NCBI GenBank assembly: GCA_016218765.1
Contig: JACRCZ010000048.1
Span: 40,779-104,778, forward strand
Reading direction: 5' to 3'
From: Deltaproteobacteria bacterium
GTDB lineage: Bacteria > Myxococcota_A > Polyangia > DRWM01 > JAAZOP01
Length of the DNA: 64,000 nucleotides
Part shown: positions 31,144 to 47,763 of the stretch, in pieces
Layout: every line of letters starts with the position of its first letter
Position numbering within the stretch: position 1 is the stretch's first letter
The notes under the pieces: model-generated
Databases searched by the model: none
Told to the model about the DNA's origin: nothing
Seen by the model: only the letters and a program-made list of their open reading frames with translations
Program-made: the position numbers and the translations under genes

Positions 31144-32385
31144 TCAGAGGTCCTCGAGGCGTCCCGAGCCGTCGTCAAACGTGGCTTTCTTGCGCCGGAT
31201 GCGCCATTCCGAGTCCCGGCGCGCGAGCTCGTACCGGAACTCGACCGTCTTGGGCCGCCAGCTCCCGTCGGTCCTCACGACGGCGGAGCGCTCGGCCTGT
31301 TCGACGCCGAGTACCTTCTCCTTTCGCGGGTCGTACGTGGGAGGATACCCGTAGATGGAGAACGTGAGTCGGTGGTGATCGCCCGGCAGGCAGCACGCGT
31401 CGAAGATTCCTGCCAGCGCTGCCGCGTCCGCCCTGCCCGACCTCCAGCAGCGCCTCTCCCATCGGTTCATCTCGCGGATGAAGGACTCGACGACGCCGGC
31501 GGGGCCGGCGGTCGAAGGGGCTCGAGGAGTCGGGGTCGTTCGTTTCATGTGTTGTTCCTGCAGCGCCTGGCGCCGCCCGGCGCGAAGGTCATCGACTTCG
31601 ACCAGCCGCATCTTCAGGTCGCCCGTCGGGCGACGCGTGGCTTCGAGCCCGATCACGAAGGGCGTGGGTTGGCTATCGGGGGCGGGGTTGGCGTCCCACA
31701 ACCGGAATTGGATTCGCCACGTCGGTGCCCTGCGGTCCGGCAGGCGGGAACCCGCGAGGCTGCTGCCGGGTCCGTCCAGGCCGTAGGCGCGTTGCGGGGG
31801 GAGGACGAGGGGAAAGCCGCGTCTCGCGCACCGGGCCAGTTCTCGCTGCAGCGTCGCCGGCAGCACCCCGGCGCGGGCCAACGCCGCCGTCCGGCCTGCG
31901 ACGATTTTCGCCACCAGGTCCTGGAGGAGGGGACGCAACTCGTCGATGACGGGCGGGCTGCCGACCAGGAAGCTGTCATGCGCAGGATCCCGGAGCCCAT
32001 CCTGGATGGCGTAGTGCGGATCCCAGCTCTCGAAGCGCACAATCTCGGGATGCCCCTCTAGCACCGGCGCATGGCGGGCGTAGTCGAGCGGTTTCTCGAG
32101 GGTGACGGTGAAGTGGCTGTGGGCGGTCCAGCATGCTGCCGAGACGACCGCGTTGCCGCGCCGAAGCTCGGCGTCGAGGATGGCGGCCAGGGTCGGCCCC
32201 AGGCGATTCCGCTGTGCCGGCGGCAGGTGACGCGCCGTCGCACGGGGATGCGTGTGTCCGGCGCCGGATCCGGGCGCCGCTGTCCGCGCGGTGCGTTTGC
32301 GCCTTGTCTCGCTGTTCGCCACGAGCCGCACCTCCCGTCCCAGGGCGACGCGGAGACGATCGTCGAGACTGCCGTCTGCGGTCAA
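31144..32385 (-). CDS. Hypothetical protein
   Basis: A 413-aa ORF with no confident family assignment. Confidence 0.45.
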   Translation of the reverse strand: MTADGSLDDRLRVALGREVRLVANSETRRKRTARTAAPGSGAGHTHPRATARHLPPAQRNRLGPTLAAILDAELRRGNAVVSAACWTAHSHFTVTLEKPLDYARHAPVLEGHPEIVRFESWDPHYAIQDGLRDPAHDSFLVGSPPVIDELRPLLQDLVAKIVAGRTAALARAGVLPATLQRELARCARRGFPLVLPPQRAYGLDGPGSSLAGSRLPDRRAPTWRIQFRLWDANPAPDSQPTPFVIGLEATRRPTGDLKMRLVEVDDLRAGRRQALQEQHMKRTTPTPRAPSTAGPAGVVESFIREMNRWERRCWRSGRADAAALAGIFDACCLPGDHHRLTFSIYGYPPTYDPRKEKVLGVEQAERSAVVRTDGSWRPKTVEFRYELARRDSEWRIRRKKATFDDGSGRLEDL

Positions 32386-32809: not shown

Positions 32810-34300
32810 CTACGGCGCGGGGGGCCAGGAGACGCCGACGTAGATGGGGTTGGAGTAGACCCAGGCGTGGTCGACGACGTAGGTGTCGGCGCGGAGGCCG
32901 AGCCAGGGGCGGAGGTGTTCGGGGACGATGCGCACGTCGGCGCGGTACACGCCGACGGGCGCCGCCGGCAGCTCGACGGTGCCCTGCCCTGTCGCGACTT
33001 CCATCCAGGTCCCGTCGTCGGAGCGGAGGATCCGTGCGGTGATCACCGGCTGCGGGCCGTCCGGGTCGAGCTTGCTGACGGTGGGGGCGACGACGCGCAG
33101 GACGACGGTCTCGCCGGCCGGGACTTCGTCCCCCATTTCGTAGAACGTTCCGGCGGCTTCGGCGTGGAAGTCGAACCCGACGGGGTATCCGAGGTAGTCG
33201 AAGCCGCCGTAGAGGCGGCCGCGGCGGATGGCGTCCTTGAGCGCAACGTCGTCGACCGCGCCCGCGGGGAGCAGCACGTAATTGGAGAACCAATGCGTGA
33301 GGCGGCGGAAGGAGTCGATCCGCTCGCCATCGGGGCTGGTCCCGTTGAAGGTGTTGCGGTGGACGTCGGTGGCCAGGACGCCGGCGGAGCGGCGGATCGC
33401 GAGGGCCCTGGACCAGCGGAGCAGGTCGGCGTCGTTCTCGCGCCAGATGGGCACGAGGCCGAGCTCGGGCACGGGGACGCGGCACGGCGCCCGGCGCAGC
33501 TCGGTCAGGAGGCTCAGCGCTTCCGCGATGCCGTCCTCCAGGTTGAAGTGCAGGTTGTAGATCTCGAAGCCGTCGAGCGGCATGGCGAGCAGCTCCTCGA
33601 CGGGCCAGCCTTCGGTGTGCTGGACGAGGGCCACGGCGCCGGCGGCCTTGAGCGCCTCGATGCCGGCGGGCGTGGTGTCATTGTAGTTGTCGTGGCGTTC
33701 GGCCGGCGTGTCGCCGACGTGGTGTTCGAGGCCGATGGGCATCGAGCCCTGCTCGGTGCCCGCGGCGATGATGATCTCGCGGCCGTCGGGGCAGGCCATG
33801 CGGTTGGCGACGGGGTTGCCGTCGCGCTCGATGAGGGTGTCGCCGGGGGCGTAGAGCAGGATGTCGGGAAACTCGTGGTCGGCGAAGAGGGTGGCGTGGT
33901 CGGTGAGGAAGGCGAAGTCCTGGCCGGTGTCGCAGAGGGCCTGGCGCAGCTGCTGGAAGCACTCTTCGTTGCGCACGCCGTCGGTGAACGGCTCGTTGTC
34001 GCAGCCGTCGTGGGAGTAGGGCGAGTGGATGTGGATGATGCCGCGGCGGAGCTGCCAGTCCCGCGGGGCCGGGACCTCGGACGAAGGCAGGACGGCCCAC
34101 GGGTGGTAGAAGCGATCGTCGGCGAACTCCTCGCCGGGGGGCGAGTTGCAGACGAACGCCTCCGCCTCCTCGGTCACGTCGAGGGCGTCGACCGCGTCGG
34201 CGGCGACGTCGCCCGCGTCGCCGGAGCTTCCGGCCGGGCCGCAGGCGAGGAGGGAGAGGCAGGTGAGTCCGAAAACGGCACGATGTCCACGGTGCATCAT
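32810..34300 (-). CDS. Exported PHP-domain (polymerase/histidinol-phosphatase-like) phosphoesterase lipoprotein
   Basis: It starts at MMHRGHRAVFGLTCLSLLACG (signal/lipobox). RGIIHIHSPYSHDG matches the PHP motif-I pattern. The N-terminal extension in the ORF track encodes an intergenic repeat and was rejected. Confidence 0.6.
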   Translation of the reverse strand: MMHRGHRAVFGLTCLSLLACGPAGSSGDAGDVAADAVDALDVTEEAEAFVCNSPPGEEFADDRFYHPWAVLPSSEVPAPRDWQLRRGIIHIHSPYSHDGCDNEPFTDGVRNEECFQQLRQALCDTGQDFAFLTDHATLFADHEFPDILLYAPGDTLIERDGNPVANRMACPDGREIIIAAGTEQGSMPIGLEHHVGDTPAERHDNYNDTTPAGIEALKAAGAVALVQHTEGWPVEELLAMPLDGFEIYNLHFNLEDGIAEALSLLTELRRAPCRVPVPELGLVPIWRENDADLLRWSRALAIRRSAGVLATDVHRNTFNGTSPDGERIDSFRRLTHWFSNYVLLPAGAVDDVALKDAIRRGRLYGGFDYLGYPVGFDFHAEAAGTFYEMGDEVPAGETVVLRVVAPTVSKLDPDGPQPVITARILRSDDGTWMEVATGQGTVELPAAPVGVYRADVRIVPEHLRPWLGLRADTYVVDHAWVYSNPIYVGVSWPPAP

Positions 34301-34360: not shown

Positions 34361-34395
34361 GCGCTCCACCGCTCCACCGCTCCACCGCTCCACCC
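34361..34395. repeat. (GCTCCACC)x4 tandem octamer array upstream of the PHP lipoprotein gene
   Basis: The sequence is gcgctccaccgctccaccgctccaccgctccaccc. It lies about 60 nt upstream of the ATG at 34300 on the minus strand. Confidence 0.65.
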
Positions 34396-35570
34396 TACGT
34401 GCAGTCGTCGAACTCGAGGATGTCGATGGGGGAGCGCCAGCGGACGACGGGAGGAGCGGTGGGGGCGGGGGCGGGGTGGGCGGCGAAGCTGACGGCGGAG
34501 AGGACGGCGAGGCAGGCGGCGAGGCTCCAGAAGAAGCCGCGGGGGCCGAGGAGCATGATGGCGAGGCCGCCGGCGGCCGGGCCGAGGACGGAGCCGACGC
34601 CGTAGGAGGCGGTGAAGCGGGCGTTGGCGGCGGCGAGGGTGTGGATGTCGACGCGGCGGCCGACCTCGGCGAGACCCAGGGTGTACATGGAACCGACGCC
34701 GATGCCGGCGAGGACGCAGCACAGGATGATGGTCGTCAGCTCGAGGTGGAGCAGCGGCAGGCAGACGCCGACGAGGGCGATGGAGGCGGCAGCGCGGGTG
34801 AGCGGAATCGGTCCGACGCGATCGGCGGCGACGCCGACGGGGATGTGGGTCACGAGGCCCGAGCCGACGACGAGGACGAAGAACCAGCCGACCTGGTCGT
34901 TGGAGAAACCGAGGCGCACGGTGCAGACGGGGAGCAGCGCGGTGACGATGGCCTCGCAGAAGCCGTAGCTGAAGCCGATGACCATCGGGGCGCGCAGCGG
35001 CAGGCGCGGCTGCTTGCGGCGTTCGGGGCGGTCGCGCACGGGAGGACGGGCGTCGGGAAAGAGGAACGGAGCCAGGCCGGCGGCCAGGATGGAGACGCCG
35101 GCGACGACGAGGAACGGCGGCCAGTTGCCGAGCGGATCGAGGAACGGCCACGAGGCGGCGCCGGTGCTGAAGCCGACGGAGAAGGCGACGCCGTAGAGGG
35201 CGAGGTTGCGGGCGCGGCGTGCGGGGTCGCCGATCAGGCTGACCGCGACCTCGGTGGAGACGAAGAACAGCGCCGCGAAGCCGCCGGAGAGGGCGCGGAA
35301 GGCGAACCAGGCGGCGAGAGTCGGGAGCGCGGGGTAGAGGAGGGCGGTGAGGCCGAGTCCGATGCTCCCGGCGAGGAAGGTGCGACGGACGCCCTGGCTC
35401 TTGATCACGCGGCCGGCGAGCAGTGCGCCGAGGCCGATGGCAAGGTACATGACGGTGCTGGTCAAGCCGTTGACGAGCGGCGCGACGCCGTCGCGATCGA
35501 GCCGGGCAGCGATGAGGGGGGTGAAGACGCCGATGGAGAGGCCGAGGGCGACGGTGGTGCCCAGGAGCAT
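34395..35570 (-). CDS. MFS transporter
   Basis: About 12 predicted TM helices. The start taken is the internal Met MLLGTTVALG, because the upstream part of ORF 34395..37037 overlaps the next gene in another frame. Confidence 0.7.
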   Translation of the reverse strand: MLLGTTVALGLSIGVFTPLIAARLDRDGVAPLVNGLTSTVMYLAIGLGALLAGRVIKSQGVRRTFLAGSIGLGLTALLYPALPTLAAWFAFRALSGGFAALFFVSTEVAVSLIGDPARRARNLALYGVAFSVGFSTGAASWPFLDPLGNWPPFLVVAGVSILAAGLAPFLFPDARPPVRDRPERRKQPRLPLRAPMVIGFSYGFCEAIVTALLPVCTVRLGFSNDQVGWFFVLVVGSGLVTHIPVGVAADRVGPIPLTRAAASIALVGVCLPLLHLELTTIILCCVLAGIGVGSMYTLGLAEVGRRVDIHTLAAANARFTASYGVGSVLGPAAGGLAIMLLGPRGFFWSLAACLAVLSAVSFAAHPAPAPTAPPVVRWRSPIDILEFDDCT

Positions 35571-35638
35571 GACGAGGGCGGCGAGCGGATGGCGTTCCGC
35601 GCGCTCGCCCCCCTCCCCTGCCGGGCCGCAGTCGGCGG

Positions 35639-37351
35639 TCAACGCGAGATCACGAGCCAGGACGTGAGATCGATGTTGGCGCCGCTGCCGGTGTACGGTG
35701 CGCCGCCGTAGTCGGCGCGGTATTCGAAGGTGTTGTCGGCGCCGAGGACGACCTGGTCGGTGACGTCGAGAGAGACGATGGGGACTTCGCGTCCCGGGCA
35801 CCAGCCCGAGCGGCCGTACCACCAGGTGCCGTACTGGTTGGGGACGGTGCCCTGGCCGGTCTGTTGCATGCAGTCGTCGTCGGTGCCGGCCTGGGGGAAG
35901 CTGCGGACGTTGTCGGTGCCGTTGACGAGGTAGTGGTGGTTCACGTTGCAGAACTCGGCGCAGTTGCCGAGGTCGGCCATGCCGTGGCCGGAGAGGACGG
36001 TGGCGATCTCGACTTTCGCGGCGTCGGCGGGCACGGGGAGGGTGATGGCGGGGTGGGCGGTGTCGTAGTCGGCGGTGAGGGCGCCGCCGGAGAAGAGGTA
36101 CACGGCCTGCTCTGGGCGCACGGGCTTGCCGGCATCGGAGAAGCGCAGGTCGAGCGTGGTCTCGTAGGGTTGCTGCGAGTAGAAGGCGAAGCGGCGGCTG
36201 CCGCCGTCGCCGAGGAGCGGGAGGAGGGCGCTGGCGTCGTGGACCCAGCGGCCTTCGCGGTGGTAGGTGGTGATCCAGCGGCCGAGCTCGACGTCGCAGA
36301 TGTCGGGATCGGATTCGTCGCAGAGGTAGAGCGAGTTGATGTAGTCCCAGGCCGGGCAGTCGCCGTACTCGCCGTCGCCGACGCAGCCGAGGTAGAGATC
36401 GAGCTCGAGGGTGTCGAAGCCGGCCATGGCGGCGGCGTCCGGGAGGTCGACATCGATCGTGGTGCGGGCGCCGGCCCAGCCCGGATCGGAGACGACCTCG
36501 CCGGCGAGGAGGTGGACGACGGTGGCGTCTTCGGCCTGCAGGGCCGCATCGCGCTCGGCCTCGAAGTTGTAGTAGACGGCCTCGTTGGCGGCCATGGAGA
36601 GGTTGGGTGCGAACCAGCCGCGGCCGGCGTCGTAGCGGGCGAAGTCGGCGTAGGAGCCGATGAAGCGGAGGCGCTGGAAGCGGTCGATGGCGACGCCCCA
36701 GCCGGGGGAGATCATCTGGGCGCCCAGCCAGCCCGGCAAGCCGCTGGCACGGCCGGGCAGGTAGTGGATGCGGCCCGTCCACCACGCGCGATCGTCCTCG
36801 CTCATTGCGCCCAGGGCGGTGTCGACGCGGCCTTGCAGGGCGGTGAGCGACTCGTTCCGGACGACGGGGGCGCCGTGGGTGGAGACGAAGAAGTAGTGGA
36901 CGTTGCGCGGCGAGCGGGCGAGGAGGGTATTGACGTCCCGTTCCCAGATGCCTCGCGTCCAGCCGGACTCCTGCTGCGGGGTATCCTGGATGAAGAGGTA
37001 GACGTCGCATCCGCTCCAGGCTGCGGAGAGGGTCCACGTGCCGTCCCAGGTCTCGAAGGAGACGTCGGCGGCGACGGCGTAGAGGGCGGGGTCGTCCGGG
37101 GCATCGATGAACTCGCGCACGGGCAGGCCGAGGGTGGTGCAGGGATCCGGGGGGGATGTCTCAGCCTCGGCGTCACCCTCATCGGCAATCTCGGGTTCCG
37201 CGTCGGCTTCCGCTTCCGCCTCGGCGTCCGGCTCCGCGTCGGTGGCGTCATCGACATCGGCGGCATCGGCGTCGGGCTGGGAGGAGTCGCCGCCGTTGCA
37301 GGCGGCCGCGGCAAGGAAGGCCAGAGCGGAGATCCATGGGATGGCTCGCAT
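35639..37351 (-). CDS. Exported hypothetical lipoprotein with an acidic D/E/A-rich linker
   Basis: The signal is MRAIPWISALAFLAAAACNGG. It is followed by DADAADVDDATDAEPDAEAEAEADAEPE. The ORF is 570 aa and no confident family was found. Confidence 0.55.
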   Translation of the reverse strand: MRAIPWISALAFLAAAACNGGDSSQPDADAADVDDATDAEPDAEAEAEADAEPEIADEGDAEAETSPPDPCTTLGLPVREFIDAPDDPALYAVAADVSFETWDGTWTLSAAWSGCDVYLFIQDTPQQESGWTRGIWERDVNTLLARSPRNVHYFFVSTHGAPVVRNESLTALQGRVDTALGAMSEDDRAWWTGRIHYLPGRASGLPGWLGAQMISPGWGVAIDRFQRLRFIGSYADFARYDAGRGWFAPNLSMAANEAVYYNFEAERDAALQAEDATVVHLLAGEVVSDPGWAGARTTIDVDLPDAAAMAGFDTLELDLYLGCVGDGEYGDCPAWDYINSLYLCDESDPDICDVELGRWITTYHREGRWVHDASALLPLLGDGGSRRFAFYSQQPYETTLDLRFSDAGKPVRPEQAVYLFSGGALTADYDTAHPAITLPVPADAAKVEIATVLSGHGMADLGNCAEFCNVNHHYLVNGTDNVRSFPQAGTDDDCMQQTGQGTVPNQYGTWWYGRSGWCPGREVPIVSLDVTDQVVLGADNTFEYRADYGGAPYTGSGANIDLTSWLVISR

Positions 37352-37459
37352 GAGGGCGCGTATAGCACGGAACGAGGCGTGCGGACGAGCGGACGGGGGG
37401 GAAGCGAGCGGACGAGACGACCGCTCGGCCGCTCGGCCGCTCGACCGCTCGCCCGTTGG

Positions 37460-38530
37460 TCAATAGAGCGTGTCGTCGGGGTGGGTGGCGAGGAGCTCAT
37501 CGATGCGTGCGAGGGCCTGCTCGCGGCGGTCGAGGACGGCGCCGACGATGTCCTCGTCCAACGTGGCGCCCTGGAATTCCCGGGTGAGCAGGGCACGGAG
37601 GGTGTCGGGGTCGAGATTGCGGAGGCTGTCGACGAGGGTTTGGGGGAAGACCTTGATGCGCCAGAGCCAGCGGCGGCACTGGACGTCGCGGCCGGAGGGG
37701 TTGTAGAGCGAGTCGCCGAAATCGATGGCGACGAGGAGCTGGGAGTCGGAATCGGGGAAGCGGACCGAGCCGACGTTGTGCGGGCGATCCTCGTTGAAGA
37801 CGAGGAAGTCGAGGAGGAAGACGGCGGTGAGATCCTGGAGCGGCTGCGAGGCGGCCACCCAGTCGCGGTTGTTCGGTCCCATCCAGCCGGTGAGCTTGTC
37901 GAAGGTCTCGGGCAGCGAGGCGAGCGGTCCGATCTTGAACTGGAACTCGGGGACCCAGTAGGTGAAGGAGCCGCAGGCGCGGGTCTCGTCGCCCTCCCCT
38001 TCCCAGGTCACCAGCTCGGCGACCTCGGCCGGCTGATCGGCGAGGCCGACGTCGAGGATGGAACGGGGGAAACAGCGGTCGACGGTCGGGGTGAGACGGA
38101 TGCCGAGGGCGCGGCCGAGGCGGTAGGAGAAGATCTCGCCGACCCAGTCGCGGTAGTTCTGCTGCTTGACCTTGAGGAGGCCCTCGATGGTGCCGCCGTC
38201 CGGGGTGGAGAGGGTGACGCGGAAGCGCACCTTGGGTCGGACGCCGCGCTCGTAGGTGGCCTTGACGAGGAGGCGGCCGTCGTCGCCGGCGGCCACGGTG
38301 TCGCCGCGGAGGAGCTGCTCGGTGGCGTCGAGGTTCCGGAGGCGTTCGATGGTGGACGCGTCGGCGGTCGTTTGGTCGTCGGGGGGGGAGAGATCCGGGG
38401 GGTCGGCGAGGGCGGAGTGAGGATGGGCGAGGCAGGCAAACACGGCGGCAAGGGCCGCTACGGCGCGAGTGTTCGGGAGGGCTGCGAGGCGCGGAAGGTG
38501 GGAACGGGAGTGGGCGGTTGGGGACGGCAT
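37460..38530 (-). CDS. Secreted atypical protein-kinase-like protein (Fam20/four-jointed-like catalytic segment)
   Basis: A signal peptide is present. The segment LLDFLVFNEDRPHNVG...LVAIDFGDS resembles the DFLxGNxDRHH catalytic loop plus DFG of Fam20-type kinases. This assignment is from memory and is hedged. Confidence 0.5.
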   Translation of the reverse strand: MPSPTAHSRSHLPRLAALPNTRAVAALAAVFACLAHPHSALADPPDLSPPDDQTTADASTIERLRNLDATEQLLRGDTVAAGDDGRLLVKATYERGVRPKVRFRVTLSTPDGGTIEGLLKVKQQNYRDWVGEIFSYRLGRALGIRLTPTVDRCFPRSILDVGLADQPAEVAELVTWEGEGDETRACGSFTYWVPEFQFKIGPLASLPETFDKLTGWMGPNNRDWVAASQPLQDLTAVFLLDFLVFNEDRPHNVGSVRFPDSDSQLLVAIDFGDSLYNPSGRDVQCRRWLWRIKVFPQTLVDSLRNLDPDTLRALLTREFQGATLDEDIVGAVLDRREQALARIDELLATHPDDTLY

Positions 38531-38674
38531 CGGCGACCTTTCTTGGCGCGGAGGCTACAACGGGGCGATCCGGGCGGCAACGAGCGCGCGCCGTGGGTCA
38601 CGGACGGATGGGGGAATGGAAAATGCAAAAATGCAATGAAAAATGAAAAACGACTCGGCGGGGGAGGCGCGGCG

Positions 38675-40129
38675 TCAGCGTTGTCGGCGGCGGGAGAGAA
38701 GGAGGGCGGCGGCGGCGAGGAGAAGGGACACGGCGGGGCCGAAGCTGGTGCCGGCGACGCGGCAGCCGCAGCCGGTTTCGGCGAAGCCGGGGCCGACGTC
38801 CACGACGTCGCGGGGGGTGTCGCCGGTGCCGTCGGTGGCGATGTCGGCGGGGGTATCGGGTGAGGCGTCGGCCTCCGCCGCTGTTTCCGCGTCGCCGGTG
38901 ACGTCCGAATCGGCGTCCGCGTCCGCACCCGAATCCACGTCGGCCTCCGCGGAGGAATCCGCTTCGGCGGACGAGTCGGCGTCCGCGTCCGCGTCGGCGG
39001 CGCAGGCGCCTTCGTCGGTCGCGCCATCGCAGTCGTCGTCGGAGCCGTTGCACAGCTCGACGGCGGCTGCGTGAATGAAGGGATCGGAGTCGTTGCAGTC
39101 ACCTTCGCACGAGGCAAAGCCGTCGCCGTCGCCGTCCAGCTCGTCGGCGGGCGTGGTCCCGTCGCAGTCGTCGTCCAGGCCGTCGCAGGATTCGGCTGCG
39201 CCGGGATGGCGCAGCGGATTGCCGTCGTCGCAGTCGCCGGCGGCGGTGGTGTAGCCGTCGCCGTCCCCATCGATCGGGACGGCGCCGGCGACGGCGTCGA
39301 AGCGGGCGATGGCGGTGGCGATGTCCTCGGCCCAGACGTAGTACCAGACGAAGGTGGTGGTTTCGCCGGGGTCGAGCGCGGGCTCGTGGAAGACGATGGC
39401 GGACCAGTAGTCGCCGGAAGCTCCGTTGTCGTCGACGGGCGTCATCCAGGTGGCGGAAGGGCTGTCGGGAAACGTGTCGACGGTCGAGGAGACGCGGGCG
39501 CGGGCGTCGGCGGAGCCGGCGGCGAGCACGACGGTCCTGGGGGAGGTGGTGCCGTTGGTGCGCAGGGCGGTGGAATCCGTGGGGGGTTGGCGCACGACAT
39601 CGTTGTCGGTCGCGTAGCCGCCTCCGATGTCGACTCCGAAGTCGCACTCGTCCTGGAAGAGGAGGTAGGCGTCGGCCAGCGACGCCGCGCCGTTGTTGGT
39701 CAGCGTGGCGGTGATGCGCACCGCGCGGTCGTCGGTGCCGAGGTAGTAGTCCAGGGCCAGGGTGACGTCGCGTAGACCGTCGGAGTAGCGGCCCGACCAG
39801 AGGATGGAGCGTCCCGAGATGGTGGTGCTGCCGGTCGTGGCGAAGCCGGCGCTGCCGCCGTTGAGGTTCTGGACGAGGAAACTCGAGGAGTCGGTGGCCT
39901 CGAAGACGATCGCGTAGTAGGGCGAGCCGGGGTAGAAGGCGTCGCCGCAGACGGGACCGCCGACGGTCTCACGGTAGCGCATGCTGTGGCCGGCCTCGTT
40001 GAGCAGCACGCCGTTGGCGGCGACGCCGACGTAGTCGACGTACGTGCCGATCAGCTCGACCTGGGCCCCGGCCGGTGCGGCGGCGATGAGGATGGCGATG
40101 GCGACCATTCCGATGGCTGCGCTGCGCAT
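38675..40129 (-). CDS. Exported protein with MopE-like metal-binding motifs and a C-terminal MYXO-CTERM sorting signal
   Basis: The signal peptide is MRSAAIGMVAIAILIAAAPAGA. CDDGNPLRHPGAAESCDGLDDDCDG-type motifs occur twice. The C-terminus is GCGC-RVAGTSFGPAVSLLLAAAALLLSRRRQR. Confidence 0.65.
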   Translation of the reverse strand: MRSAAIGMVAIAILIAAAPAGAQVELIGTYVDYVGVAANGVLLNEAGHSMRYRETVGGPVCGDAFYPGSPYYAIVFEATDSSSFLVQNLNGGSAGFATTGSTTISGRSILWSGRYSDGLRDVTLALDYYLGTDDRAVRITATLTNNGAASLADAYLLFQDECDFGVDIGGGYATDNDVVRQPPTDSTALRTNGTTSPRTVVLAAGSADARARVSSTVDTFPDSPSATWMTPVDDNGASGDYWSAIVFHEPALDPGETTTFVWYYVWAEDIATAIARFDAVAGAVPIDGDGDGYTTAAGDCDDGNPLRHPGAAESCDGLDDDCDGTTPADELDGDGDGFASCEGDCNDSDPFIHAAAVELCNGSDDDCDGATDEGACAADADADADSSAEADSSAEADVDSGADADADSDVTGDAETAAEADASPDTPADIATDGTGDTPRDVVDVGPGFAETGCGCRVAGTSFGPAVSLLLAAAALLLSRRRQR

Positions 40130-40350: not shown

Positions 40351-41559
40351 ATGAGACGAGCTTGCTGGATGGCGTGGGGGATCGTGGCGGCGTTGGGGAT
40401 GGGAGGGTGTTTCGTGGCGCGGGCACCGGCGGCGCAGGTGGTGCAGCCGCCGCCGCCGTCGTTGATCGCGTCGACGCCGGCGCCGGCGTACGTGCCGCCG
40501 AGCACGGTAACGGTCGGGACGGGGAATCCGCCGGCGGCCGTCGTCGTGCAGGCACCCCATCCGCCGCCCCCGGCGACCGTCGTCGTGCGCGTGCCGGAGC
40601 CTCCGCCCCCTCCCCCGCCGCCGACGGTGATCGTGCAGGCGCCCAATCCACCTGCGGCGACCGTGACCGTGACGGCGACGACGACGCAGGGCGCGACGGT
40701 GGTGGGCACGGTGAGCGCACCGCCGCCCCCGACGATCGTGGGGTCCGTGGCGGTTCCGGCGGTCGTCGGGCCGCCGCCGCCGACGATCGTGGGGGCGGTC
40801 GGGCCGTCGGCCATCGTGCTGGCGAACGGGACGGCGTACACGATCTGCCGGCTGTACCTGACGCCCGCGGGGCAATCGACGTGGGGCAACGACCTCCTGG
40901 GCGGGCAGATCATGGCGCCCGGAAGCCAGATGTCCGTGTCGCTCGACGGGTCGTGGGGCGCCTGGGACCTGCTGGCGGCGGACTGCAACGGCGCGACGAT
41001 CGTCGAGGAGCGCGGGCGGGCGCTGCCGTCCGACGGCGTGTGGTCGGTGCGCGCGGCGGCGACCGCGGTGGTGACCCGGCCCGTGCCGGCGGGCGTTGCG
41101 ACGGTGGTCGGTACGCCGGTGGTCGTGGGAACGGTGGCGGTGCCGGTCGTGGCGGGTCCCCCGCCGCCGGTGATCGTCGGGGCGGCGCCGCTCGCGACGG
41201 CGGATTTCGGCGGGCGCGCGGGGCTCACGGCGCTGGCGGTGGCCTACTGGCTGGGCGCGGACGCGGACGACCTGGACGAGCTGCGGCGGGCGGCGCTCGA
41301 CGAGGGCGCGTGCGGGTTCATTGACGCCGACGATTTGGACCAGATGTGCTCGATCGCGATCGACGACATGGGCGCGTGCAGCTTCCTGGACAACGACGAC
41401 CTGGAGACGCTGTGCGAGGTGGGGTTCGAGGGGGAGAGCTCGTGCGGGTTCATCCGCGACGCGAACCTCCAGGCGTTTTGCCGCAGCGCGTTCGAGGGCG
41501 AGCGGCTGTGCGGGTCGATCACGGACCCGCGCATCCAGCAGATCTGCTGGCAGATGTAG
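40351..41559 (+). CDS. Pro-rich lipoprotein with C-terminal Cys-containing DDLD repeats
   Basis: It starts MRRACWMAWGIVAALGMGGC. There is a poly-Pro tract (PEPPPPPPPPT) and four repeats of the form CGFIDADDLDQMC, CSFLDNDDLETLC, CGFIRDANLQAFC and CGSITDPRIQQIC. Confidence 0.55.
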   Translation: MRRACWMAWGIVAALGMGGCFVARAPAAQVVQPPPPSLIASTPAPAYVPPSTVTVGTGNPPAAVVVQAPHPPPPATVVVRVPEPPPPPPPPTVIVQAPNPPAATVTVTATTTQGATVVGTVSAPPPPTIVGSVAVPAVVGPPPPTIVGAVGPSAIVLANGTAYTICRLYLTPAGQSTWGNDLLGGQIMAPGSQMSVSLDGSWGAWDLLAADCNGATIVEERGRALPSDGVWSVRAAATAVVTRPVPAGVATVVGTPVVVGTVAVPVVAGPPPPVIVGAAPLATADFGGRAGLTALAVAYWLGADADDLDELRRAALDEGACGFIDADDLDQMCSIAIDDMGACSFLDNDDLETLCEVGFEGESSCGFIRDANLQAFCRSAFEGERLCGSITDPRIQQICWQM

Positions 41560-42723: not shown

Positions 42724-42778
42724 TCAGGGCGGGCGGTCGGCTTGATCGGCCTCGCTCCGGTTGGTAGCGTCACGAACC

Positions 42779-43417
42779 ATGAGAACTGCAATCGTGGTCG
42801 TGGTCGTTCTGCTGGCGTCGGGATCTTGCTGTTCGCATCCGGGTCCGGGGTCGTGTCCGTCGTGTCCGGCCTGTCCACAGGCGGGGACGGAGGCCGGGGC
42901 GGCGGCGACGCCGGCGACGTTCACGGACAACCAGGGGACGGCGGTGACGTTCGAGCTGGGCGCCCGCGCCTTCGCGGACCGCATCGTTTCGGCCGAGCCG
43001 GGCGATCCGGCGCGCACGGCCGCGGGCTGGACCGATCCGGCCGCGGCGCTCGCGGTGCCGGACTACCACGGCGAGCATGACGAGCCGCCCACGGCCGTGA
43101 CGCTCGGCTGCGGCGGCGTCCTGGTCGTCGAGTTCACCGACAACGGGCTCGTCGACGGGCCGGGCGCCGACCTGCACGTGTTCGAGTGCGGGCCGGACGT
43201 CGAGGCGATGCACATCGCGATCAGCGTCGACGGCACGAGTTGGACGGAGGTGGGCGACGTGCGCGGCCAGCCGGCGCAGGTCGACCTCGCGGCCGTGGCC
43301 GCACCGGATGTCTCGTACCGTTTCGTCCGCATCACGGACCTCCGCGATTCCTGCAGCTCGACGTTTCCCGGTGCGGACATCGATGCCGTCGGAGCGATCC
43401 ACGCCGTGGCGCTCTGA
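42779..43417 (+). CDS. Small exported protein
   Basis: MRTAIVVVVVLLASGSCC is a signal peptide. The ORF is 213 aa. Confidence 0.5.
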   Translation: MRTAIVVVVVLLASGSCCSHPGPGSCPSCPACPQAGTEAGAAATPATFTDNQGTAVTFELGARAFADRIVSAEPGDPARTAAGWTDPAAALAVPDYHGEHDEPPTAVTLGCGGVLVVEFTDNGLVDGPGADLHVFECGPDVEAMHIAISVDGTSWTEVGDVRGQPAQVDLAAVAAPDVSYRFVRITDLRDSCSSTFPGADIDAVGAIHAVAL

Positions 43418-44723: not shown

Positions 44724-47630
44724 CTACAGTCCGACGATCCCGGCGGTGCGATCGACGCCCGCGCCGTACTCGAACTCCTCGATCGGGTCGGTGTCGTGGA
44801 CGCGCTGGGTCCAGAGGGAGTCGTCGGCTGGGACGGCGGTATCGGGGCGCGTGTAGGTGTCGTCGCCGTCGGCGTCGAAGAAGAGGCCCATGGTGGGGAA
44901 GAGGGTGCGGGCGCCGGAGGCGGGATCGACCTGCGCGTTGCCGAAGGAGAAGTCGCTGGAGCATTCGTAGGAGTCGACGCCGGCGCGGTCGGCGAGCCAG
45001 CCGAAGCCGTCCTCGTTGCCCGCGCCGAGGGAGAGGTTCGGGGCGCCGTAGGAGTCGTCGCCGGCGTCGTCCATGAGGAAGGCGGTGGAAAAGTCGTGGC
45101 CGCCGCCGAGGGTGACGTTGAGGCGTCGCGCGGTGGCGTTGTAGACGTCGTTGCCTGCGGCGTCCCAGAGGGCGGCCATGGCATAGTGTGCGGCGCCGCC
45201 TTCGACGTACCAGCGTGCGTCGTAGTGGTCGGCGCCGCTGCCGTCGGCGAGGATGCCGGTGCCGAACCAGTAGCCCGAGCCTTCGCAGAAGACGGCGCAT
45301 TCGTAGTCGTCGTTGCCGGCGAGGTCGCGCAGGACGCCGAGGCCGCCGGACATGTAGACGCCGTCGCCGCCGCCGCCGAGGTCGGAGCGGCGGCCGAAGC
45401 CCATGCCTTGCGACATGCTGGAGTTGGAGCGGCCGGGGTCCTGCGGGTTGTAGTAGAGGACGTCGTCGGGCTGCGCGAGGTAGGTGTCGTCGCCGCCGTC
45501 GTCGTACAGGATGCCGGCGCCGAGCACGTAGGCGAAGCCCTGGACGCCGTAGTAGCCCTCGTAGTGGTCGATGCCTTCGCCTGCGTCGAGGAGGATGCCG
45601 ACGCCGAAGGTGGAGGCGCCCTGGCAGCCGGCTTCGCAGAGGTAGCGGTCGTCGCCGCCGGCATCGTAGAGGATGCCGACACCGAGGGAGCCCCAGCCCT
45701 GGCTCATGCGGAGGGAGCGGTATTCGTCGCCGGAGTCGCCGTGGTCGAGGAGGATGCCGATGCCCAGGGAGCCGCTGCCCTGCCGGCCGATGGTGGAGAG
45801 GGAGAAGGGGCCGTAGTAGGCGTCGCCGGGGTAGCGGCCCTGCGCGTCGGAGGGGAGGCGGGGCGGGGTGTCGGCGGGCCGCGGACGTTCGTCGTAGCCG
45901 TAGATGTCGGCGCCTCCGAGATCGATGGCGAGGGACACGGGGTTGTTGCGCGAGCGGGTGGCGCCGGCCTGGACGCGGTAGGTGTCGTTCCCGCCGGTGT
46001 CGACGAGCAGCAGGATGTCGCCGGAGAGGTCGGCGGTTTCGTGGGCGTCGTCGGCGCCGTCGCGGACGGCGATGATGCCGAGCGGTGTATCCCAGGTGGC
46101 GGAGAAGCCGGTGTCGTCGAGAAATCGGTCGAGGTCGGCGGCTTCGACGGTTGCCAGCAGGTCGGCGCCGGCCTGGAAGAGCGTGGCGTAGCCGAAATCA
46201 TCGATCAGGAAGTCCTGGATGTCGCGGCGGGTGACGGTGAGCGAGCTGGTCGAAGGCAACACGAGGCCCGGGGTATCGGAGCGGATGCGGGCGACGAGGG
46301 AGTCGTTCGCCGCGATCGGGGCGATGGCGACGTCCCGTGCGGTCGCGGCCTCGTCGAGGGCGACGATCACGGGTGCGAGGGCGGAGCGGAGGGGGGCGGG
46401 GAGCGTCGCTGCTTCGGCGGCGATGGCGTCGCGGTCGGCGGGACCGCCGTGGTGGTCGATGAGGGACGCAATCGCCTCGGTGAGGGGGTCGGTGGGATCG
46501 ACGGCCGGGTCGTGCGGGCGGTCCAGGATCGGGTGGCCTTGGCGCTCGGCGGCGCGGAGGAGGAGTCCGCGCGGGGTGGTGGCGGCATCGAGCGCCCCGA
46601 CCAGGTCGCGGACGAAGGGCTCGCCCCGGAGCCATTCGCCGTGGATGTCGTCGTACCACGGCAGGCGGAACCGATCGTTCGCCAGCTCGGGGCCGAAGCG
46701 GTCCATCGAGTCCTTGCTGAAGAACAGATCGCAGCGGTCGAGGCCCAGGGCGTCGAGCGCGTCGTCGAGCATGGAGCCCGGGACGCGCTGGAGACAGATG
46801 CAGTCGTCGGGGAGGCAGTAGCGATCGAGGTCGGCGGGCGAGGTGCCGGCGACGGGGAGGCAGCGGGAAGAGGCCGGACAGTCGGCGGCGGCGGTACACG
46901 GCTTCGAGCACAGCTCCGGGAGGCGGGCGTCGACGGTGCGGAGGCAGGTGTCGGAGCCGCCGGTGCAGGACGCACCGCCGACGCAGGACGCGCCGACGCC
47001 GGTGGCGGGCGGGTTCGCGCCGCAGCGCTCGGGCGGCGGCGGGAGGGGCTCGAGGCAGGCCCGGACGCCGTCGCCGCGGTCGGCGCAGCGGTTGAAGCCC
47101 GGGTCGCAATCGATGTCGCGGGAGCAGGCCCGGGTGCAGAAGCCAGAGGTGGAGCCGGCGGGGTCGGAGCAGGTGTCGAAGCGGCCGTCACAGCCCCAGG
47201 CGCGGCAGGGTTCGCCCAGGCCGGAGACGATGCAGGTCTCGGCGACGGGGGCGCAGTATTCGCCCCCGTCGCGGGTGGTGCACTCGGAGCCGTCGGGGCA
47301 CGGGAGGCCGCCGGCGCAGCTCGGCAGGCAGGACATCTCGAGACCGTCGAAGAGCGCGCAGGTTCCGGTGGGGCCGCAATCGGCGTCCCAGCGGCAGGGG
47401 AGGCAGTAGACGTCGGTGGGTGGGGCGTCGTCGGGCGCGTCCTCGCCGTCCAGGGCGTCGTCGCCGGCCGCGTCGTCGGGCGCGACGTCCTCGTCCAGCG
47501 CGTCGTCAACGGCTGCGTCGTCGCCGGTTGCGTCGTCCGGGGCGGCGTCGGTGGGGGAACTGTCGTCGCCGCAGGCGGGAAGAACGCAACAGGCGAGCAG
47601 GAAGCAGCACGTCCATGGTGTTGGGCTCAT
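44724..47630 (-). CDS. Large exported lipoprotein with a Cys-rich N-terminal region and about 12 tandem GxGxLxDxGxDDxY repeats (propeller-like)
   Basis: A GGAGGAA SD lies 5 nt upstream of the ATG at 47630. The lipobox is VLPAC. An acidic linker follows. Repeats include SLGIGILLDHGDSGDEY, SLGVGILYDAGGDDRY, TFGVGILLDAGEGIDHY and AYVLGAGILYDDGGDDTY. Confidence 0.6.
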   Translation of the reverse strand: MSPTPWTCCFLLACCVLPACGDDSSPTDAAPDDATGDDAAVDDALDEDVAPDDAAGDDALDGEDAPDDAPPTDVYCLPCRWDADCGPTGTCALFDGLEMSCLPSCAGGLPCPDGSECTTRDGGEYCAPVAETCIVSGLGEPCRAWGCDGRFDTCSDPAGSTSGFCTRACSRDIDCDPGFNRCADRGDGVRACLEPLPPPPERCGANPPATGVGASCVGGASCTGGSDTCLRTVDARLPELCSKPCTAAADCPASSRCLPVAGTSPADLDRYCLPDDCICLQRVPGSMLDDALDALGLDRCDLFFSKDSMDRFGPELANDRFRLPWYDDIHGEWLRGEPFVRDLVGALDAATTPRGLLLRAAERQGHPILDRPHDPAVDPTDPLTEAIASLIDHHGGPADRDAIAAEAATLPAPLRSALAPVIVALDEAATARDVAIAPIAANDSLVARIRSDTPGLVLPSTSSLTVTRRDIQDFLIDDFGYATLFQAGADLLATVEAADLDRFLDDTGFSATWDTPLGIIAVRDGADDAHETADLSGDILLLVDTGGNDTYRVQAGATRSRNNPVSLAIDLGGADIYGYDERPRPADTPPRLPSDAQGRYPGDAYYGPFSLSTIGRQGSGSLGIGILLDHGDSGDEYRSLRMSQGWGSLGVGILYDAGGDDRYLCEAGCQGASTFGVGILLDAGEGIDHYEGYYGVQGFAYVLGAGILYDDGGDDTYLAQPDDVLYYNPQDPGRSNSSMSQGMGFGRRSDLGGGGDGVYMSGGLGVLRDLAGNDDYECAVFCEGSGYWFGTGILADGSGADHYDARWYVEGGAAHYAMAALWDAAGNDVYNATARRLNVTLGGGHDFSTAFLMDDAGDDSYGAPNLSLGAGNEDGFGWLADRAGVDSYECSSDFSFGNAQVDPASGARTLFPTMGLFFDADGDDTYTRPDTAVPADDSLWTQRVHDTDPIEEFEYGAGVDRTAGIVGL

Positions 47631-47763
47631 CGGGGTTCCTCCGTCCGGCAAGCGTACCGGGCGGGGGGATTCCGCGCAATGAAGGCCGCGGGGTAAGGGC
47701 GAGCCGGAGTTCGCGCAAAGGGCGCAAAGGGACGCAAAGGGCGCAAAGAGGGGGGGCGGGGCT

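Follow-up and report, generated by a model that had tools for sequence, protein, structure and literature searches.

Does a bacterium encode and export a kinase of the kind that animals use on their secreted proteins? Fam20 kinases generate most of the animal secreted phosphoproteome and also take part in proteoglycan synthesis. The question is raised by one gene on the minus strand, at positions 37460-38530, of a 64,000-nucleotide stretch of contig JACRCZ010000048.1 from a Deltaproteobacteria bacterium, the whole of which is referred to here as the window. A preliminary description of this DNA, made from the letters and their open reading frames, had read the product as a secreted protein with a Fam20- or four-jointed-like catalytic segment. 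The analysis reported here supports this Fam20-like kinase reading, both through a chain of profile homology and through structural matches. The gene product is probably, at odds that we put at about 0.65, a Sec-exported, catalytically competent and minimal Fam20-type atypical kinase, as predicted from its sequence and from a structural model.

The open reading frame at 37460-38530 (stop codon at 37460-37462) is a genuine gene. In the open reading frame listing it translates to a precursor of 356 residues, and its GC content by codon position is 0.71/0.47/0.90 in a window of 70% GC, a pattern typical of real coding sequence. The motifs quoted in the preliminary description are both present in this translation, LLDFLVFNEDRPHNVG as residues 239-254 and AIDFGDS as residues 268-274, and they lie in real coding sequence as judged from the translation, the codon-position GC and the ribosome-binding site. 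What lifts them beyond chance is the homology statistics, not the motifs themselves.

Homology to the Fam20 family

Searched alone, the window protein has Fam20C (PF06702) as its sole Pfam match (E=0.11, residues 228-318), no NCBIfam match, and no match in the PDB with phmmer. A word-indexed homologue search returned six relatives with 53-100% identity, or seven when an alignment served as the query, and an exhaustive HMMER search of 1.84 billion cluster representatives returned 118, of which 25 lie below 1e-10 and nearly all are 320-450 residues long. Two alignments underlie what follows: A1, which holds 83 of the 118 relatives, and a narrow subfamily alignment of 14 sequences that includes the window protein.

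The profile of the 83 sequences, when compared with the PDB, finds human Fam20C at an E-value of 4.7e-24, and the match runs over nearly the whole kinase domain (profile positions 58-340 against chain positions 80-429). Zebrafish Fam20C (1.1e-20), Fam20A (4e-18), the hydra xylosylkinase (2.6e-17) and C. elegans Fam20 (2.3e-16) come after it, and the next family is reached only with PI4K2A, at 3.4e-4. The strong value for Fam20C is not circular, since no eukaryotic Fam20 is present among the 83 relatives (the best member reaches only 48 bits against a Fam20C fragment) and the most Fam20-like members inspected are encoded on gene-dense contigs of bacterial type, beside genes for OmpA, NAD kinase and response regulators. 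The profile of the 14-member subfamily also ranks Fam20A and Fam20C first, at E-values of 0.008-0.025 and over the C-lobe only. The same subfamily can be linked to Fam20 through bacterial proteins that carry PF06702, as it aligns with 28 of them over 273 columns (hhalign, 99.8%, E=1.2e-28) and these proteins in turn match Fam20C at 3e-28. At the level of sequence, the homology of the window protein to Fam20 over the whole kinase domain is solid.

When the 83 relatives are scanned individually against Pfam, 27 match Fam20C (best 1.7e-10), 18 match HipA_2 weakly, three match FAM198 and three PI3_PI4; several score 16-26 bits against Fam20C. The consensus of the 83 sequences, with the segments AAFKP...ExAAYRLARxLG..VPP, FDxLIxNxDRxSGGN and DNxxAF, is nearer to Fam20 than the window protein is.

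The HipA_2 matches could be taken as a sign that the protein belongs among the HipA-type toxin kinases, or the spore-coat kinases of the CotH type, and not with Fam20. HipA also figures in the list of structural matches (E=2e-4), and CotH from Bacillus is a published bacterial relative of Fam20C and the only bacterial kinase that was found discussed as Fam20C-like (PMC12189002). Such an identity is nevertheless very improbable. The HipA_2 matches, the best of them at 6.1e-8 and those of two relatives checked individually below threshold, span the catalytic-loop segment only; the 83-sequence profile finds no HipA chain in the PDB at E<=10; and the template modelling (TM) score of HipA against the predicted structure is 0.33, compared with 0.50-0.55 for Fam20. 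A predicted signal peptide is present in the window protein, and the flanking genes that were scanned with Pfam include none similar to HipB. HipA was rejected as an identity, given that the window protein has no Pfam HipA match and the matches of its relatives are weak and local. CotH was rejected as well, with a Pfam match in none of the 83 members and no structure among the top 50 Foldseek matches. CotH works within the mother cell, without being exported. The window family is much nearer to Fam20 than to CotH.

Predicted fold, catalytic residues and export

The AlphaFold2 model obtained with the 83-sequence alignment has a predicted local distance difference test score (pLDDT) of 92.1 and a predicted TM-score (pTM) of 0.87, and its fold is that of a Fam20-type atypical kinase. 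Ranks 1-26 of the Foldseek search are all occupied by Fam20A, Fam20C, the Fam20B-type Fam20 from hydra and Fam20 from C. elegans, with E-values from 8.5e-10 to 1.3e-7 and a probability of 1.00. They are followed by Helicobacter pylori CtkA, phosphoinositide 3-kinase (PI3K) and HipA, whose E-values are at least 50-fold weaker and whose TM-scores are lower. The structural search proposed in the preliminary description thus returns Fam20 crystal structures as its best matches, and not a non-kinase fold. These belong to the animal Fam20 proteins that head both the profile and the structural comparison, namely the Golgi casein kinase Fam20C, the xylosylkinase Fam20B and the pseudokinase Fam20A (PDB 5yh3, 5yh0, 5xom, 4kqa and 5wrr). 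The parts that can be aligned with them include a lead-in helix, the beta3 lysine, the alphaC glutamate, the F/L-D-F-L-x-x-N-x-D-R loop, the D-x-G motif and the C-terminal helical bundle. The last of these, characteristic of Fam20, corresponds in the window protein to residues 283-349 (37484-37684, minus strand), is modelled as helices at 283-291, 297-305, 308-316 and 326-349, and aligns over its entire length with the C-terminal helices of Fam20A and Fam20C.

Residues were paired with hmmalign through two independent family hidden Markov models (HMMs), and the numbering of human Fam20C is that of the chain plus 140, fixed on Asp298, Phe300 and Tyr305 as named in PMC5865150. The predicted ATP-binding pair of the N-lobe (38135-38173, minus strand) consists of the beta3 lysine K120 (38171-38173), equivalent to K285 of human Fam20C, and the alphaC glutamate E132 (38135-38137), equivalent to E311. 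The catalytic loop D241-F-L-V-F-N246-E-D248-R249-P-H-N252 (37775-37810, minus strand) pairs D241 with D451, N246 with N456, D248 with D458 and R249 with R459, and the putative metal-binding D270-F-G272 (37715-37723, minus strand) pairs D270 with D478 and G272 with G480. Further towards the C terminus, D273 falls on R481 and R335 on R549. Across the 83 relatives D241, D248 and R249 are invariant, and conservation stands at 90% or more for K120, E132, N246 and D270; K120 and E132 are invariant within the 14-member subfamily. The equivalent of D248 in hydra Fam20, Asp299, is the catalytic base (PMC5865150). By alignment, the catalytic residues of Fam20 kinases are all intact in the window protein.

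These pairings also settle how far the two motifs of the preliminary description resemble Fam20. The spacing between them superimposes under both HMMs, N246-x-D248-R249 on N456-x-D458-R459 and D270-x-G272 on D478-N-G480 of Fam20C, and the likeness of the catalytic loop stands. The DFG, on the other hand, does not hold up as a Fam20 hallmark, because Fam20 and most of the bacterial relatives have D-N-G/x at the metal site; judged from the alignments, it is a peculiarity of the small subfamily of the window protein.

Fam20 kinases have an additional acidic residue on the loop between beta3 and alphaC that pairs with the lysine (Glu213 in C. elegans Fam20, Asp152 in hydra), replaced by Gln in the pseudokinase Fam20A. 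In the window protein this loop is 12-14 residues shorter and holds Q123-Y126-D128-W129. D128, which is kept in 90% or more of the subfamily, lies four residues before E132 instead of five as in Fam20, and is placed differently by the two HMM alignments.

A kinase fold does not always imply the phosphorylation of a macromolecule. Several atypical kinase-fold proteins have proved to carry out other reactions, such as the AMPylation catalysed by SelO and the glutamylation catalysed by SidJ, and the window protein might likewise act in a SelO- or SidJ-like manner, as a pseudokinase or scaffold, or as a kinase of lipids or small molecules. Some relatives show weak local similarity to the catalytic loops of PI3/PI4-kinases and PI4K2A, and the scarcity of ATP outside the cytoplasm calls for caution. 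This explanation is nonetheless improbable, given that all canonical residues for phosphotransfer are present and strongly conserved, unlike in pseudokinases of the Fam20A type, and that the similarity to PI-kinases extends over only some 40 catalytic-loop residues, with a structural TM-score of about 0.33 for PI3K. As an identity, PI3/PI4-kinase was rejected, since the Pfam matches in the three relatives are weak (best 1.3e-3) and the match to PI4K2A covers only those 40 residues or so.

The export of the protein is inferred from sequence rules. A predicted Sec signal peptide occupies residues 1-42 (38405-38530, minus strand), with a basic n-region, the hydrophobic core AVAALAAVFACLA and the cleavage motif A-L-A followed by D. 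Cleavage after A-L-A would leave a mature protein of 314 residues that begins with DPPDLS, with a mass of 35.3 kDa and a pI of 4.6. An equivalent hydrophobic N-terminus is found in all 13 of the subfamily relatives aligned with the window protein, and a crude hydropathy scan detects a signal-like N-terminus in 75 of the 83 family members, 25 with a lipobox-like motif. In the AlphaFold2 model the same region forms an isolated, low-confidence helix (residues 21-34) followed by a disordered linker. The signal peptide of the preliminary description is thus borne out by its sequence features and by the conserved hydrophobic N-termini. Its reading as a lipoprotein signal, through the sequence VFAC, was rejected, as the cysteine is absent in the relatives P0003-P0005.

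The complete signal peptide depends on the choice of start codon. The ATG at 38530 is preceded, six nucleotides upstream, by the Shine-Dalgarno-like box AAGAAAGG (38537-38544, minus strand), which is conserved as GAGAGAGG in L001, the locus of an 85%-identical relative. By contrast, the NCBI protein P0001 from a metagenome-assembled genome (MAG), annotated as 'hypothetical protein HY907_06175 [Deltaproteobacteria bacterium]' and 100% identical to the window product, is 29 residues shorter (327), as it begins at an internal GTG and loses most of the signal peptide. The long start, with the whole signal peptide, is supported by the upstream ribosome-binding site and by the matching N-termini of the homologues. 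The family HMM scores the window protein at 280 bits and finds no paralogue in the window or in the fetched loci, each of which holds one copy.

With a predicted export signal and a predicted atypical kinase fold of the extracytoplasmic type, the window protein shares the general layout of animal Fam20, at about 14% identity and in a host without a Golgi. Its mature form is smaller than the crystallised Fam20 chains (314 versus approximately 350-430 residues) and differs from them where they contact their substrates. The Fam20C motifs D/N-F-F-Y-F-S-D and C-x-Y-Y-C, as given in PMC5865150, are absent from the window protein, and the third position after the metal-binding aspartate, which is an essential lysine (Lys321) in Fam20B and Arg481 in Fam20C, is Asp273. 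The sugar-contacting His301 of Fam20B is replaced by Pro250. Together, the replaced substrate residues and the loops that are missing from the protein suggest a minimal Fam20 core with a substrate pocket of its own.

Several points weigh against a catalytically competent Fam20-type kinase. The window protein scores 12.6 bits against the Pfam Fam20C model, below its gathering threshold of 26.8, and its membership of Fam20 is therefore based on the profile and structure evidence. The TM-scores against Fam20 are only the 0.50-0.55 mentioned above. Three loop segments of human Fam20C are absent, namely 12 residues of the beta3-alphaC (K-beta3/K-alpha3) loop that carry the DFFYFSD motif, a Cys-rich loop of 14 residues, and 16 residues before the C-lobe. 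No conserved disulfide pattern exists either, as the three cysteines of the mature protein are not kept in the 53%-identical relative P0005. Lastly, neither the Gram-negative periplasm nor the space beyond the cell is known to offer a general supply of ATP, and the true site of action may be prey lysate, vesicles or the inside of target cells, whether prey or host.

If the protein is a Fam20-type kinase as proposed, its activity would involve three steps. The precursor would be exported by the Sec pathway and cleaved between ALA and DPP, releasing the acidic mature protein into the periplasm, onto the cell surface or into the medium. ATP and a divalent metal would then be bound through K120-E132 and D270, the metal possibly being Mn2+ by analogy with Fam20C. 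Finally, D248 would act as the base, and the gamma-phosphate would be transferred to a hydroxyl group of an extracytoplasmic macromolecule.

Gene neighbourhood and candidate substrates

The best guess for this acceptor is a sugar residue within a glycan or glycoprotein, although we give it somewhat less than an even chance; Ser/Thr residues of a protein are a possible but less probable target, and a lipid or small molecule is an unlikely one. The lean towards glycans comes from the neighbouring genes for PNGase- and NAGPA-type proteins, and from the sugar-kinase activity of the earliest-branching Fam20 enzymes studied in animals (PMC5865150).

The first of these neighbours lies directly downstream of the kinase gene in the window. 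The gene at 35639-37351 (minus strand) encodes a lipoprotein (signal ending in ...LAAAAC) that is homologous to acid PNGases, similar to zebrafish Ngly2 and with the C-domain of PNGase F. Its product matches Pfam N-glycanase_C with an E-value of 2.5e-23, and its residues 244-567 match PDB 9lwg_A at 7.4e-51 and bacterial PNGase F at 1e-6. The 9lwg structure is the zebrafish acid PNGase Ngly2 (PMC12753239), so that this gene and that of the kinase are two adjacent genes with relatives of the animal secretory or lysosomal type. In locus L001 the order of genes for a MopE protein, the kinase, the acid-PNGase homologue and a major facilitator superfamily (MFS) transporter is kept.

The second neighbour is found among the relatives. 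A gene for a PF09992 (NAGPA) phosphodiester glycosidase of the 'uncovering enzyme' type adjoins the kinase gene in three loci that represent two subfamilies, at 1416-3634 in L004, 4522-7317 in L012 and 4737-7293 in L014. In L004, whose kinase belongs to the same subfamily as the window protein and is 29% identical to it, the stop codon of the NAGPA gene overlaps the start of the kinase gene, and the pair is flanked by unrelated housekeeping genes. The NAGPA gene is divergent from the kinase gene in L012 and L014, where the two kinases share 58% identity and a gene with an IgGFc_binding domain follows the kinase.

The case for a glycan substrate has its own weaknesses. Around 13 loci were inspected for gene context, which makes the pattern a lead and not a statistic. 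The synteny with the PNGase gene occurs only in the near-identical genome that holds L001, and the context differs in L002, L005, L007, L008, L010, L011, L013 and L017. The sugar-contacting residues of Fam20B are not conserved, the replacements being those given above for His301 and Lys321, and any sugar substrate would therefore be a different one from that of Fam20B.

An alternative reading is an exported protein Ser/Thr kinase comparable to Fam20C, Four-jointed, CotH or CtkA, which would act on the secreted or surface proteins of the cell itself or on those of its prey, the glycan-related neighbours being coincidental. Fam20C itself is among the best profile and structural matches; the secreted protein kinase CtkA comes next after Fam20 (E=7e-6 in Foldseek, E=0.039 with the subfamily profile); many acidic, low-complexity exported proteins are encoded nearby and could serve as substrates; and most loci of the family have no glycan-related neighbour. 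However, the elements of Fam20C for substrate binding and dimerisation, which comprise the two motifs above and Arg481, are absent or replaced, the NAGPA and PNGase adjacency is recurrent, and no substrate gene can be identified among the neighbours. A protein kinase of this kind is possible, if on the unlikely side. CtkA, a secreted pro-inflammatory atypical protein kinase (PDB 3akj and 3akk), is in any case only distantly similar to the window family, with a weak profile match at the catalytic loop, TM-scores of only 0.33-0.37 and a likeness confined to the catalytic core.

Two further associations were noted in the loci of relatives. Phosphoesterase genes are divergent from Fam20-like genes at 144-2129 in L002, 4801-5904 in L010 and 4988-6415 in L008; the first two encode Metallophos proteins with signal peptides, 27% identical to each other, and the third a protein of the 5'-nucleotidase family. 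This arrangement may reflect a pairing of kinase and phosphatase or chance, and the link was set aside, because it is limited to these few loci and no such gene is found in the window. Genes for PAD_porph (agmatine deiminase) and CN_hydrolase (similar to N-carbamoylputrescine amidase) proteins follow a PF06702-type kinase gene in L013 and L017, and in L012 the two are separated from the upstream kinase gene by about 2.8 kb. Their recurrence probably reflects synteny kept within a lineage and not a link in function.

In the window, the kinase gene sits in a run of genes for exported proteins, as noted in the preliminary description, and the flanking genes do begin with lipoprotein or signal sequences. 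Upstream, the gene at 38675-40129 (minus strand) encodes a secreted protein that has MopE motifs and ends in the MYXO-CTERM type of sorting tag (Pfam Cu-binding_MopE, 4.9e-19; TIGR03901, 2.7e-07). It starts at 40129, is preceded by a GGGAGGGAAGGGG box, and its product has a signal peptide, two Cys-rich metal-binding motifs of the MopE type and a long, acidic Asp/Ala-rich linker. The MYXO-CTERM tag, together with the source names, assigns the window to an uncultured groundwater bacterium of the Myxococcota. Similar low-complexity linkers rich in Asp and Ala follow the signal peptides of several neighbouring lipoproteins. Further genes for exported proteins with signals of the lipobox type are located at 40351-41559 (...LGMGGC), 32810-34300 (...SLLAC), 42761-43417 and 44724-47651. 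Beyond the PNGase homologue, the next gene (34395-35600, minus strand, start approximate) encodes an MFS transporter (Pfam MFS_1, E=1.2e-38).

The AT-rich intergenic region upstream of the kinase gene (38590-38660, minus strand) contains a TTTTCAT/TTTTGCAT repeat (38615-38650 in Tandem Repeats Finder) and is, from its sequence, a probable promoter or operator region. The proximal 100 bp or so of the kinase leader, including TTGCATTTT, are about 90% conserved in L001. Between 34 and 41 kb, the promoter and terminator scan and the Rfam search returned nothing usable, and no sigma-70 consensus was found upstream of the kinase. In the 108-bp spacer that separates the kinase and PNGase genes, positions 37381-37455 hold 4.4 copies of the 8-bp tandem repeat CCGCTCGG beside its inverted complement, of the GCGGACGA type. 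This repeat, which is conserved in L001 and two units longer there, could form a hairpin, without a T-run.

A few kilobases away, the open reading frame at 31144-32385 (minus strand) encodes a C-terminal Imm-NTF2 domain (polymorphic-toxin immunity, E=4.4e-07), which hints at a locus for inter-bacterial conflict. On the scale of the window, the GC skew is near zero or negative up to approximately 16 kb and positive (0.08-0.27) from there to the end. The shift may be due to gene-strand bias, with many genes on the minus strand, or to a replication-related switch.

Bacterial Fam20 relatives and their significance

The family to which the window protein belongs comprises 118 or more clusters when grouped at 50% identity, to which at least 230 further clusters at 90% identity with PF06702 can be added. 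Relatives with a named source come from MAGs of 'Deltaproteobacteria', Myxococcota, Kofleriaceae and Sandaracinaceae, and the locus of one relative has Planctomycete-type PSD/PSCyt neighbours. A search of contigs with the 14-sequence alignment yielded two genome loci and two metagenome loci.

The PF06702 carriers, some of them from MAGs of Sandaracinaceae and other Myxococcota, are genes of bacteria, and the contigs that hold them reach 3.2 Mb. Their products (for example P0117) are similar in size to the window protein, mostly about 330-440 residues, and have the same core motifs as the window subfamily, with which they share about 25% identity. They differ from it in having DNG and 'DRWGG' in place of its DFG and 'DRPHN', and in passing the Pfam threshold, one of them being automatically named 'Golgi casein kinase Fam20', whereas the window protein is annotated as 'hypothetical'. 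The window protein belongs to a more divergent branch of these bacterial relatives of Fam20.

In the literature that was searched, no characterisation of bacterial Fam20-like proteins was found. The text of a review on Fam20 does not discuss bacterial homologues (PMC7948968), and a kinome survey from 2022 lists FAM20 among the clusters specific to eukaryotes or Metazoa (PMC9758233). A preprint from 2026 includes FAM20B among the possible, 'not always unequivocal', contributions of Myxococcota to eukaryotic endomembrane functions. With at least 230 clusters tagged as PF06702 and no characterisation found, bacterial proteins with a Fam20 domain are implicit in the databases but unstudied, and the window protein is one of several hundred such relatives of a family usually described as animal-specific.

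The finding indicates that a compact version of Fam20, with a signal peptide and intact catalytic residues, exists in bacteria. If active, it would represent a rare kinase chemistry outside the bacterial cytoplasm and would raise the question of its ATP source. Its core of 35 kDa, in which no disulfide pattern is conserved, could be a tractable model for Fam20 catalysis, and the recurring adjacency to genes of the PNGase and NAGPA type offers a testable lead to its substrates. The family also bears on the tentative listing of FAM20B as a contribution of Myxococcota. A wider scenario, which we consider unlikely, is that Myxococcota and their relatives hold an old family of Fam20-type kinases, exported and by now diversified, that phosphorylate glycans or glycoproteins outside the cytoplasm together with eukaryote-like glycan enzymes of adjoining genes, NAGPA and acid PNGase, and that this family was the stock from which eukaryotic Fam20B, Fam20C and Four-jointed arose. 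If true, it would establish ATP-dependent phosphorylation outside the cytoplasm as a bacterial process, and would provide a concrete and testable case of gene transfer from Myxococcota to the eukaryotic endomembrane system.

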